From Alphaproteobacteria bacterium (GTDB lineage Bacteria; Pseudomonadota; Alphaproteobacteria; JAAXGF01), in assembly GCA_963555825.3 (NCBI GenBank), contig CAUVXB020000002.1, positions 1,952,001 to 2,016,000 on the forward strand: a DNA stretch of 64,000 bases, given 5' to 3'. Within the stretch, counting starts at the first letter, position 1. Each line of letters opens with the position of its first letter. Shown here piece by piece: positions 7,849-52,292 of the stretch. Both the position numbers and the translations under genes were made by a program. The notes below the pieces were generated by a model. The model saw nothing but the letters and a program-made list of their open reading frames with translations, had not been told where the DNA came from and did not search any database.

Positions 7849-7981
7849 CGCAGTCCAAGCCTAACAGCCGGACCCGGGCGGCGGTAGTGACAACCCCGTG
7901 AGGCCCGCGCTCTTGCGCGCCGCGGCGTTTCGGCCGATGCTGCGCCCCATTAACCTACGGCGAGCGGACATACGGCAAGCC

Positions 7982-8983
7982 ATGGCGAGCCACACCTTTT
8001 TCTGCGTCGACGCGCATACTTGCGGCAATCCGGTGCGGGTGGTGGCCGGCGGCGCGCCGCCGCTCGAAGGCGCGACGGCCAGCGAACGGCGTCGGGATTT
8101 CATGGCGCGCTACGACTGGATCCGCACCGGCCTGATGTACGAGCCGCGCGGCCATGCCATGATGTCGGGCTCGATCCTCTATCCGCCGACGCGCCCCGAT
8201 TGCGACGTCGGCATCATCTTCATCGAGACCTCGGGCGCGCTGCCGATGTGCGGCCACGGCGCCATCGGCACGGTGACCGTGGCGATCGAGCGCGGGCTGG
8301 CGACGCCCGCCGAGCCCGGCGTCCTGCGCCTCGACACGCCGGCCGGCGTCGTCGTCGCGGAATATGAACTCATCGGCGAGCATGTCGCGTCGGTGCGCCT
8401 GACCAACGTCGCCTCGTTCCTCCATGCGACCGGTATCGAGGTCGAATGCCCGGACATCGGAACGATTACTGTCGACGTTGCCTATGGCGGCAATTTCTAC
8501 GCCATCGTCGAGGCCCAGGCGAACTACCGCGACCTCGCCGACATCGCGCCCGCCGACGTGCTGCGCTGGAGCCCGGTGGTGCGCCAACGCCTCAATCAGG
8601 CGCATGAATTCGTCCATCCCGAGGACGACACCGTCCGGGGACTGAGCCACGTCATGTGGACCGGCGCGGCGAAACATCCGGACGCCGACGCGCGCAACGC
8701 GGTGTTCTACGGCGACGGCGCGATCGACCGCTCGCCCTGCGGCACCGGCACCTCGGCGCGCATGGCGCAGCTCGCCGCCCGGGGCGAACTGGCGCCCGGC
8801 GACGGCTTCGTCCACGAGAGCATCATCGGCAGCCTGTTCCACGGCCGCATCGAGGCGACCGCGACGGTCGGCAACCGCGACGCCATCATCCCGAGCGTCG
8901 AGGGCTGGGCGCACATCACCGGACTCAACACCATCTTCATCGACGACCGCGACCCCTTCGCCCACGGCTTCCAGGTGGTTTAG
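7982..8983 (+). CDS. 4-hydroxyproline 2-epimerase (proline racemase family)
   Basis: DAHTCGNPVR, EPRGH, catalytic MCGH and DRSPCGTGT. Confidence 0.88.
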   Translation: MASHTFFCVDAHTCGNPVRVVAGGAPPLEGATASERRRDFMARYDWIRTGLMYEPRGHAMMSGSILYPPTRPDCDVGIIFIETSGALPMCGHGAIGTVTVAIERGLATPAEPGVLRLDTPAGVVVAEYELIGEHVASVRLTNVASFLHATGIEVECPDIGTITVDVAYGGNFYAIVEAQANYRDLADIAPADVLRWSPVVRQRLNQAHEFVHPEDDTVRGLSHVMWTGAAKHPDADARNAVFYGDGAIDRSPCGTGTSARMAQLAARGELAPGDGFVHESIIGSLFHGRIEATATVGNRDAIIPSVEGWAHITGLNTIFIDDRDPFAHGFQVV

Positions 8984-9522
8984 CCCGGCTTTCTCACTAA
9001 GGATAGGTGCGGCACGGCGGATATCGGACGACAGGCTAGGAAAAGCGTGCGGGCCACGATGCCAGTACTCCCTTGCACGATTCCACGGCACGTAGGATCG
9101 CGTTTCCCGTTTCCGCGGCAGTCGGGGGCGTGACGGCGATGCCTTGGCATCGCAGAGCGTTCCCGACGCCCCGAGGGGACGGGAAACGCGACCCGCAGGG
9201 CGACCTTGCGCGGCCGCCGGCGGCGTTGCCCGGCGCTTGTGATGCGCCCAGCATCACGGCGCGCCGGGCGCCTTGCCGGACGACCACGCAAGGCCGTCCT
9301 ACGTACCGTGGCATCGTGCAAGTGAGTACTCGCGCATCGGGCAAGCGCTTTGACGCGGCCTGTCGTCCGAGATCCGCCGCCATTCGGGTCGCGCCGGGCG
9401 GGGCGTGCGCGGCGTCGAGGGCCTTGCGCGTAGCCCAGGCTACGCTCCGCGGCCTTTTTCTGGCGGATCGGCGACCGCCCGACGCGATGACGCGCATGTC
9501 CATGGTGAGAAATTCGGGCTAG
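8981..9522. mobile_element. ~540-bp non-coding nested palindromic (MITE-like) element
   Basis: Terminal IR 8981-9003/9499-9521 (19/23), inner IRs 9015-9036/9358-9379 (21/22), 9064-9097/9297-9330 (31/34), 9098-9110/9179-9191 (13/13); terminal arms recur at 26770 and 35420. Confidence 0.75.
9066..9328. repeat. 263-nt structured element, copy 1 (TAC...GTA)
   Basis: Same fold and junction motifs as 52031-52292. Confidence 0.8.
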
Positions 9523-9607
9523 TGGATAGAATCCACGAGGCGAGAGCAGTCCCGACCGACGATACGCGGCCCCGCCAGGGCGCATCGATGTCCACGCCCG
9601 CCGCTGC

Positions 9608-10828
9608 CTAATCCACGCGGGTGAAGACTTCCTGCGGCTCGGCGACGCCAGCGAGGACGTGGCGGCCGAGCGAACGCAGCGGGGCCGAGACATGGGCCGC
9701 GAACTCAGCCGACGTGAGCAGCCGACGGTCGAGACTCTTGGTCAGCTTCTCGAGCCGCGCCGTGCGGTTGACGGCGGCGCCGATGACCGTGAAGTCGAGC
9801 CGCGCGGCGGCGCCGACGTTGCCGTAGATCACGGCGCCTTGGTGCAGACCGACGCCGAAGCGGATCGGCGGCTCGCCGGACCGGCGGCGACGGTGGTTGA
9901 CCGTATCCAGGCTGTCGATCAGGTCGATGGCGGCGTCGAGCGCGGCGTCGCATGCGGCGTCGAGCGAAACTTCGGCGGAGGTCGGGAAGATAGTCAGCAC
10001 GGCGTCGCCCATGAACTTCAGGATCTCGCCGCCACGCGCCGTGACCGCGGCGCCGACGACCTCGAAGTAGGCGTTGAGGAGGGCGAGCAGCGCGTCGGGC
10101 GGCAGGGTTTCGGAGAGCACCGTGAAATCGCGCAGGTCGCAGATCGAGATCGCCGCCTCGATGGTGTCGGCATCGCCGCGGCGGATCTGGCCGCTCAGCA
10201 CCCGAGCGCCGGTGCGATGCCCGACATAGGTGTCGAGCAGCGTGCGGGCGACGGTCTCGAGCGCGGTGACCCGCAGGATCGGCGTCACGATGTCGGCCAG
10301 CAGCTCGAGCTTCACCAGATTGTCGTCGCCGAAGCCCGCCGGGTCGTCGACGACGATGCCGATCGCGCCGATCACCCGACTGGCGGAGCGCAGCGGCAGC
10401 GCGCAGTAATCGGTGCCGCCGAGCGCCTTGACCTCGTGCAGCAACGCATGGTCGCGGTCCTCATCGAGGTCGTCGAGTCGGCGGCGGTAGACCGTGCCGG
10501 TCGAGAAGACGTGCTCCCAGGGGCTGCCCAGGTAGGACGGCGTTTCCTCCATGCCGTGGTGGACGCGCCCGGTATTGACGCCGCCGCCGCGCGCCCAGGT
10601 GTAGCTGAAGTCGCGCACCTCGGGGTGCAAGGTCATCAGCGTGATGCGAACGCGCAGCAGCGCGGCACCCGCCCCGGCCAGGTGATCGCAGAACGCGCCG
10701 ACGAAGCGGCCGGTGTCCTCGATCTGGCGGCCCTCGGTGACCAGCCAGGCGAGCACACCGGAAAGCGGCCAGCCCGGTTGCTCCTGTTCGATGAAGCGCC
10801 GCATGGCGGCGAGGCGCGGTGACGTCAT
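9608..10828 (-). CDS. Class III adenylate/guanylate cyclase with N-terminal GAF-like region
   Basis: CDLRDFT, LKFMGDAV, DFTVIGAAVNRTARLE. Confidence 0.88.
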   Translation of the reverse strand: MTSPRLAAMRRFIEQEQPGWPLSGVLAWLVTEGRQIEDTGRFVGAFCDHLAGAGAALLRVRITLMTLHPEVRDFSYTWARGGGVNTGRVHHGMEETPSYLGSPWEHVFSTGTVYRRRLDDLDEDRDHALLHEVKALGGTDYCALPLRSASRVIGAIGIVVDDPAGFGDDNLVKLELLADIVTPILRVTALETVARTLLDTYVGHRTGARVLSGQIRRGDADTIEAAISICDLRDFTVLSETLPPDALLALLNAYFEVVGAAVTARGGEILKFMGDAVLTIFPTSAEVSLDAACDAALDAAIDLIDSLDTVNHRRRRSGEPPIRFGVGLHQGAVIYGNVGAAARLDFTVIGAAVNRTARLEKLTKSLDRRLLTSAEFAAHVSAPLRSLGRHVLAGVAEPQEVFTRVD

Positions 10829-52030: not shown

Positions 52031-52292
52031 TACCAAGGAGCAGTGATAAAGGCCCATAGAGATCGCGTCCGCTTTTCGCCGGTGAGGCAAGGGAGCCGCA
52101 GGCGATGCAGCGCATCGGCTAGGCAACCTGGCGCCCTCCGGCGATAAGCGGACGCGACCCGAAGGGCGGCTTGCCGAGGCTCTCGGTCGTCGTTGCGCCC
52201 GCCTTGCGATGCGCTGCATCGCCGCGACGGGCGCGCCTAGCCGAAAACCACGGCAAGCCGTCTCCATGGGTCTTTATCACTGGTCCTTGGTA
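52031..52292. mobile_element. 262-nt structured element, copy 2 (TAC...GTA)
   Basis: IRs 52030-52062/52261-52293 (30/33), 52063-52082/52138-52157 (19/20), 52167-52176/52251-52260 (10/10); junction motifs shared with 9066-9328. Confidence 0.8.

Follow-up and report, generated by a model that had tools for sequence, protein, structure and literature searches.

Dispersed structured repeats of an alphaproteobacterial genome as probable IS630-type miniature transposons with a conserved two-arm core

Introduction

A 263-nt stretch with an extensive hairpin fold lies at positions 9066-9328 of a 64,000-nt segment of an alphaproteobacterial genome (the whole of this segment is called the window below), and a second one, of 262 nt, lies at 52031-52292. 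The two have the same architecture and different outer stems, which raises the question of what kind of element they are, what moves them and why their interior is so similar. A sequence-only reading of the window had described them as a two-copy element and had proposed either a mobile single-stranded DNA substrate defined by its structure, in the manner of REP/REPIN or attC sites, or a large non-coding RNA, acted on by an enzyme encoded elsewhere.

Structure of the two window copies

The claimed coordinates, the TAC and GTA ends and the lengths of 263 and 262 nt were all reproduced, and the succession of outer stem, arm, CCC-GNA-GGG mini-hairpin and second arm is present in both copies. The fold energies are far below those of shuffled sequences, with z-scores for the two copies of -11.8 and -11.9 on the + strand and -12.6 and -15.5 on the - strand, and none of 200 dinucleotide shuffles equalled them. 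The features of the two copies, named type A and type B, are as follows.

9066..9328, + strand: type A element, the flagged copy; 263 nt, TAC to GTA; one of 18 copies at 93-100% identity.
9066..9095, + strand: left terminal inverted repeat of A, the 5' side of the outer stem, starting with TA (from the fold; same in all 18 copies).
9096..9191, + strand: arm 1 of the A core, a long hairpin with the tip GCGATGC-loop-GCATCGC (from the fold; covariation helices 2-4).
9192..9200, + strand: CCC-GCA-GGG mini-hairpin of A, between the arms (from the sequence; covariation helix 5).
9201..9298, + strand: arm 2 of the A core, a long hairpin with the tip GATGC-loop-GCATC (from the fold; covariation helices 6-8).
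9299..9328, + strand: right terminal inverted repeat of A, the 3' side of the outer stem, ending with TA (from the fold; same in all 18 copies).
52031..52292, + strand: type B element, the "other copy" of the sequence-only reading; 262 nt with termini TACCAAGG...CCTTGGTA; one of 42 full copies.
52158..52166, + strand: CCC-GAA-GGG mini-hairpin of B (from the sequence and the fold).

The inverted repeat of the A copy continues for two bases outward on each side (AGTACT...AGTACT, 9064-9330). When aligned pairwise, the A and B copies of the window have a mean column identity of 69% and their outer stems do not align, in agreement with the earlier view that these stems are unrelated, and the motifs said to be common to both in the same order are seen in the pairwise alignment as well as in the core alignment described below. 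The outer stem is kept within each sub-family, which identifies it as a sub-family-specific terminal inverted repeat, and the two window copies differ in it because they belong to different sub-families. No gene was called inside either copy, except for the over-long start of a neighboring Sel1 gene, in a crude GC3-based gene map that was made for this analysis and from which the gene contexts and stop codons given below are also taken. The B copy is flanked by two genes of the - strand, a Usp gene on one side and a Sel1-repeat gene on the other.

Sub-families A to E across the genome

The genome (6.04 Mb, two contigs, 65% G+C) was searched by BLAST with both window copies, and a covariance model was built from six cores of types A-D. 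The "two-copy" description is true within the window alone, as the gene-less superfamily is present about 120 times in the genome. Its sub-families have a common plan, a core of ~210 nt (two long hairpin arms and the CCC-GNA-GGG mini-hairpin) within an outer stem of 28-35 bp that is specific to the sub-family. Across the whole genome, BLAST detected 18 full-length copies of type A, 93-100% identical with the outer stem included, and 42 full-length copies of type B, 80-100% identical, together with two B copies split by insertion sequences. Types C and D were defined by hits covering the core alone and comprise 11 copies plus one deletion form and 2 copies, respectively. Type E occupies 50 places in the genome, in 31 of which it is uninterrupted and matches the model. 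The covariance search suggested by the sequence-only reading did reach further copies beyond the window, with 135 matches in the genome (both strands counted) and others in different bacteria. The window copies of A and B are matched at 9092-9302 (188.6 bits) and 52057-52266 (166.9 bits), and the E copies are included over the whole model, the uninterrupted ones matching it over positions 1-211 on the strand opposite to A.

Several variants were observed within type B. Two contain 18 and 36 extra bases (C1:158650-159120, C2:285550-286030), for which an excision footprint was considered, and a replacement of the arm-2 loop by 21 nt was also seen. One 18-nt insert sits in the 5' side of arm 2 and is hit by a 1177-bp insertion sequence in the copy at C2:941112-942587. 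The B copies at C2:2713974-2714261 and C2:3625457-3625744 have identical flanks on both sides, which points to segmental duplication rather than to two insertions. Another B copy (C1:169300-171600) carries in its arm-2 tip loop a 1.84-kb IS110-family element (Pfam DEDD_Tnp_IS110, Transposase_20), the non-coding part of which contains tandem repeats with an apparent period of ~134 nt. This element was rejected as a specific partner, as its other copies have different flanks.

Type A nested in type E

The intergenic region between a proline racemase gene (+ strand, 7898-8983) and a GAF-cyclase gene (- strand, 9608-10828), in which the flagged copy lies, consists of one E element with the following features.

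8983..9519, - strand: type E element, ~270 nt without its guest, with A in the tip loop of one arm (50 genome places; A-free copies; model match of uninterrupted copies).
9385..9490 (bounds approximate), - strand: other arm of E (from the fold of an uninterrupted E copy).
9522..9536, + strand: solitary fragment (15-17 nt) of a type C terminal repeat, abutting the right TA of E (from a sequence match).

The "third module" reported at ~9410-9465 is real and belongs to one arm of the E element, into whose other arm A inserted. This E element is flanked by TA at 8981-8982 and 9520-9521, and the TAG stop codon of the racemase gene is made up of the left flanking TA and the first base of E. In A-free E copies, GCGATG|CTTGCGCATC is uninterrupted across the loop. 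The same position in E is occupied by 16 of the 18 A copies, the other 2 being elsewhere, which indicates that A spread with E as a composite; as these 16 copies derive from one insertion, the independent contexts of A number only about three. Solitary or internally deleted ends similar to the type C fragment occur elsewhere in the genome, e.g., at C2:1180359-1180377. Solitary A- or E-like ends were considered as ends of insertion sequences and rejected as deletion remnants.

DNA contigs of two sequencing runs over 8600-9700 show the A-free form, for which paralogous copies are a possible source, and contig joints that skip 267-282 bases are explained equally well by paralogous A-free E copies and by an allelic empty site. 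For neither window copy was an allelic empty site recovered. DNA nearly identical to 8600-9700 is present in 14 DNA or unclassified runs from several studies, some of them labeled sponge metagenome, and the bacterium may be sponge-associated.

Ends, target sites and IS630-family transposases

TA lies immediately outside the repeat at both ends in 18/18 copies of A, 41/42 of B, 8/11 of C and 16/31 of E, and most of the remaining copies have it at one end. The ends of C and E are TA or CTAG, which as a duplication is indistinguishable from part of the repeat. In type B, 17 of the 42 copies carry the same triplet, in direct orientation, on the outer side of both ends of TACC...GGTA, compared with 266 of 1722 (15%) between the flanks of different copies, and among the 21 copies with T-N-A on both sides, N is the same in 17. 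The outside triplets of the window B copy, CAA and TGA, form an imperfect pair. In type A, the TA is bordered by an inverted pair, AG/CT, in 18/18 copies, with no visible target duplication, and the TA expected from a simple TA duplication is absent in A-free E copies. Paralogous empty sites were sought for 102 copies, and the only one found (A in an E variant) is without TA duplication. In relatives of other genera, such as G004, the gap between the genes flanking B is ~240 nt shorter.

The 102 catalogued copies are distributed over tandem (47), convergent (18) and divergent (15) intergenic regions, predicted ORFs (5) and places far from genes (17), and these proportions are close to the intergenic background of 1346 tandem, 446 convergent and 552 divergent regions. 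One end of the element adjoins a predicted stop codon in 8/11 copies of C, 13/31 of E, 9/42 of B and 0/18 of A, the baseline being 3.6% of non-coding TA dinucleotides. This abutment fits CTAG or T-N-A targets, which in a GC-rich genome are mainly stop codons.

The genome contains at least 150 DDE_3 (IS630-type) matches above the Pfam cut-off, which belong to four insertion sequences of 1163-1185 bp, all four types being above the cut-off. Many of these elements are located in repeated DNA, and the target duplications of the intact ones were read from filled sites and paralogous empty sites. The 1185-bp element duplicates CTAG; for one of its copies, both flanks and the empty site read CTAC, suggesting a duplication of 4 bp. 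Three insertion sequences (1163-1177 bp) have TACCA...TGGTA ends and produce a 3-bp T-N-A duplication (e.g., C2:724562-725738 versus the empty site C2:2278746). The IS630-type expansion is massive, with 66 full copies each of the 1185-bp and the 1177-bp element, and the former also occurs in head-to-tail arrays of up to four copies with a single CTAG per joint (e.g., C1:235249-239976).

The TACCA termini of B are those of intact IS630-family insertion sequences of this genome, and its 30 terminal bases resemble the ends of a seven-copy insertion sequence with z-scores of 4.1-4.5, equaled by 0 or 1 of 500 shuffles. For IS630 family members, the usual duplication is a 2-bp TA, while a 3-bp T-N-A duplication is typical of IS5 / PIF-Harbinger-like groups. 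The T-N-A duplication, direct for the three insertion sequences and statistical for B, would accordingly favor placing B and its TACCA-ended partners in the latter groups, but the transposases of all three match Pfam DDE_3 with 74-92 bits against a cut-off of 28.6, and this placement is very improbable.

The ends of C are shared, with 2 of 20 bases different, by a multicopy element in a relative of the same family (G001), where they run into the C-terminus of an IS630-type transposase. The transposase fragment of 78 residues gives a sub-threshold DDE_3 match (E 0.003) and is 82% identical to annotated IS630-family transposases on plasmids. Its reading frame enters the terminal repeat and stops in the last TAG of the latter, and the element breaks the G001 assembly at no fewer than 14 contig ends, at least (C52, C87, C99, C106, C160, C161, C196 and others). 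Annotated IS630-family elements on plasmids of Novosphingobium and Sinorhizobium have CTAG at their borders and end in this repeat as well, with 24 and 26 of 30 bases, compared by eye, in common with the C end. No insertion sequence with type A ends was found in this genome or among 72,556 plasmid records, and no autonomous element with type E ends was found among the insertion sequence ends of the genome or on plasmids.

Covariation and distribution of the core

An exact-motif scan of one genome per species yielded at least 100 stretches, mostly from Alphaproteobacteria among the matches listed. The covariance model covers most of the listed stretches at full length, including those from Thalassospiraceae, Kiloniellales, Rhodospirillales, Roseibium, Ensifer, Rhizobium, Hyphomicrobiaceae and Inquilinaceae. 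Weaker matches were obtained in Comamonadaceae, Pelomonas, Thermoanaerobaculia and Gemmatimonadota assemblies, some of which are metagenome bins, so that contamination is possible. The 49 best matches were aligned by fitting them to the model; 91.2% of their cells are paired, compared with 70.6% in shuffles and 34-43% with slid partners, and 68 of the 83 pairs have changed on both sides; none of 500 shuffles reaches the observed values. The loci were picked by tip-hairpin and mini-hairpin motifs, and the invariance of those two helices is thus partly by construction. This covariation upholds the earlier proposal of a conserved fold, which is kept through compensatory changes. Conservation in the core alignment extends to the unpaired junction motifs.

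In an unbiased sample of one genome per alphaproteobacterial family, the core gave matches with E no higher than 1e-6 in 14 of the 150 other genomes. One match from each of these 14 was taken, and all have an inverted repeat of 28-32 bp round the core and TA at the ends (mostly CTAG or TTAG). The terminal repeats around cores fall into many classes, and the core tree follows the end class, requiring 6 changes versus 23.5 for shuffled labels, with 0/200 shuffles as low; in this tree, row L109 was mislabeled C owing to a nested flank, and one reverse-strand duplicate row was dropped. The A core falls within a clade of C-type cores and is 80% identical to the nearest of them, while the A ends are unrelated to those of C, so that terminal repeats are exchangeable around a lasting core.

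Template switching inside a DNA palindrome (a Ripley-type mechanism) can also produce covariation when there is no selection, so the fold by itself is no proof of function. Arguments for some constraint on the core are its conserved unpaired motifs and its wide distribution.

These data bear on the two proposals of the sequence-only reading. A single-strand DNA element read by its structure (REP/REPIN-RAYT, IS200/IS605 or attC) and moved by an HUH or tyrosine recombinase would be in keeping with the very stable folds of both strands, the strong covariation, the replacement of ends around a lasting core, and the presence of A, without target duplication, in a hairpin loop; three Y1 (HUH) transposase genes also occur in the genome. 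However, an element lies within 5 kb of none of the three, so the RAYT/HUH gene looked for beside the element is missing there. Among 153 CGATGC-loop-GCATCG hairpins, 129 are inside catalogued elements, which leaves no free-standing REP family. The ends are conserved in sequence within each sub-family and contain TA, type B has T-N-A duplications as in DDE-type elements, and the ends of B and C are like those of the IS630 family. Movement by structure alone is thus hardly credible here, whereas the accompanying proposal of a mobile, non-coding element that depends on an enzyme encoded elsewhere is judged right.

The second proposal, a structured non-coding RNA family whose core is the functional unit, with one strand transcribed and the spread of the repeat being secondary, could likewise appeal to the pairing and two-sided changes given above, to the conserved junction motifs and to the occurrence of the core in 14 of the 150 sampled families of the class. 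It could also draw on the tandem settings, in which B, C and E copies run 24 times against and 12 times with the gene direction; type A runs 2 times against and 9 times with it, and the orientation bias is modest overall. Against this, the window has no Rfam match at the gathering threshold, and only chance-level hairpin matches appear at E up to 10 in both regions. The G-U pairs give no consistent strand bias (298 versus 296 by strand in B, more on the + strand in A and C, more on the - strand in E), the reverse strand also fits the model well, and copies lie both ways round in all kinds of intergenic region, with convergent, divergent and tandem settings in background proportions. Promoter and terminator scans gave no terminator-like site in either element and one promoter-like site, outside the flagged element. 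In two RNA runs, the contigs over 8600-9700 span the racemase gene and pieces of repeat ends that belong to other copies, and they speak neither for nor against a transcript of the element. An RNA family is, on balance, a most unlikely explanation.

Discussion

The elements are best explained, with a probability of about 85%, as non-autonomous IS630-type miniature transposons (MITEs) that are moved in trans by IS630-family transposases. The fit is strong for B and C, and A, D and E would follow by analogy. The observed features are the multicopy dispersal, the terminal repeats, the TA ends, the T-N-A duplication of B, the likeness of the B and C ends to IS630 ends, and the nesting of A in E. 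The elements are also shorter than ~400 bp without a gene of their own, have conserved terminal inverted repeats and dispersed, mostly intergenic copies, and share their host with a transposase, as MITEs do. We infer the assignment of a transposase to each sub-family and the same mode of movement for A.

As MITEs, the elements would be moved in trans by the DDE transposases of the abundant IS630-family insertion sequences in a cut-and-paste manner. They would land at TA-containing targets, CTAG-like or, for B, T-N-A, often at the stop codon of a gene. The internal palindromes may give the short element of ~260 bp flexibility or extrude as a cruciform, so that its ends could meet in the transposase complex, and such assistance is our preferred guess for the role of the core.

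Ordinary MITEs keep their ends while the interior drifts, and the MITE reading alone does not explain a conserved interior with differing ends. A more speculative idea, which we regard as possible but rather doubtful, is that the core is a functional module that persists across families, perhaps phyla, and switches terminal repeats among IS630 transposase lineages. It might raise transposition via a cruciform or four-way junction, or act as a structured RNA or DNA signal.

The closest known systems are other elements of this type. RUP (repeat unit of pneumococcus) is attributed to IS630-Spn1, and like RUP and other IS630-type MITEs, the present elements are short, non-coding, multicopy and intergenic, with terminal repeats that are IS630-like in B and C and putative TA-containing targets, and would be moved in trans. 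Unlike RUP, they form at least five sub-families in one genome, with different ends round one two-arm core, and this core recurs across the class in many families, with weaker matches in other phyla. They also resemble, by description, ERIC/MITEEc1 and the Correia elements of Neisseria, which are imperfect hairpin-folding palindromes in many copies, often co-transcribed with their neighbors; in contrast to the present elements, ERIC and Correia elements keep their ends and are confined to few genera. ERIC/MITEEc1 is placed under IS630 in ISfinder, with the name MITEEc1_IS630 (bioRxiv 10.1101/2024.01.18.576219). The same MITE census gives 97.4% of MITE clusters as confined to one genus (bioRxiv 10.1101/2024.01.18.576219), unlike the present core, which spans genera.

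REP/REPIN repeats likewise form hairpins between genes and retain their structure through compensatory changes. The present elements differ from them in being much longer, in having no HUH link, and in their sequence-conserved terminal repeats with TA and their T-N-A duplication; REP units are 20-40 nt long and stand alone or as inverted doublets, whereas the tip hairpins here are mostly within long elements. An integron attC site is an imperfect palindrome of 57-141 bp beside gene cassettes and an integrase, and the length and setting of the present elements do not fit it.

RIME1 of rhizobia has two large palindromes. RIMEs, Sm-repeats and AB/C palindromes of Sinorhizobium are presented in one study as repeats between genes that are conserved in sequence and structure and whose function is unknown (PMC2573895), and RIME1 and the Sm-repeats of rhizobia are credited to Osteras et al. 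1995 (cited in PMC2573895 and PMC1273637). By these descriptions, RIME1 and the Sm-repeats are like the present elements in being alphaproteobacterial intergenic repeats that share sequence and secondary structure. As the model matches Ensifer and Rhizobium, part of the superfamily may already carry RIME or Sm-repeat names. Full-text searches of the literature returned no description of this element family, which might be among the supplementary sequences of the MITE census.

MITEs are usually seen as short-lived deletion products of insertion sequences in which only the ends matter, with families mostly restricted to one genus. The kind of element described here is ordinary; its unusual part is the conserved, structured interior, not the ends. 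The fold is found in approximately 1 in 10 of the sampled alphaproteobacterial families and is kept by compensatory changes (68/83 pairs). Such elements are liable to be taken for riboswitch-like motifs or large non-coding RNAs when GC-rich genomes are screened, and screens of this kind would gain from a covariance model of the elements. If the core aids transposition, the competition of non-autonomous elements for transposases would follow a new principle.
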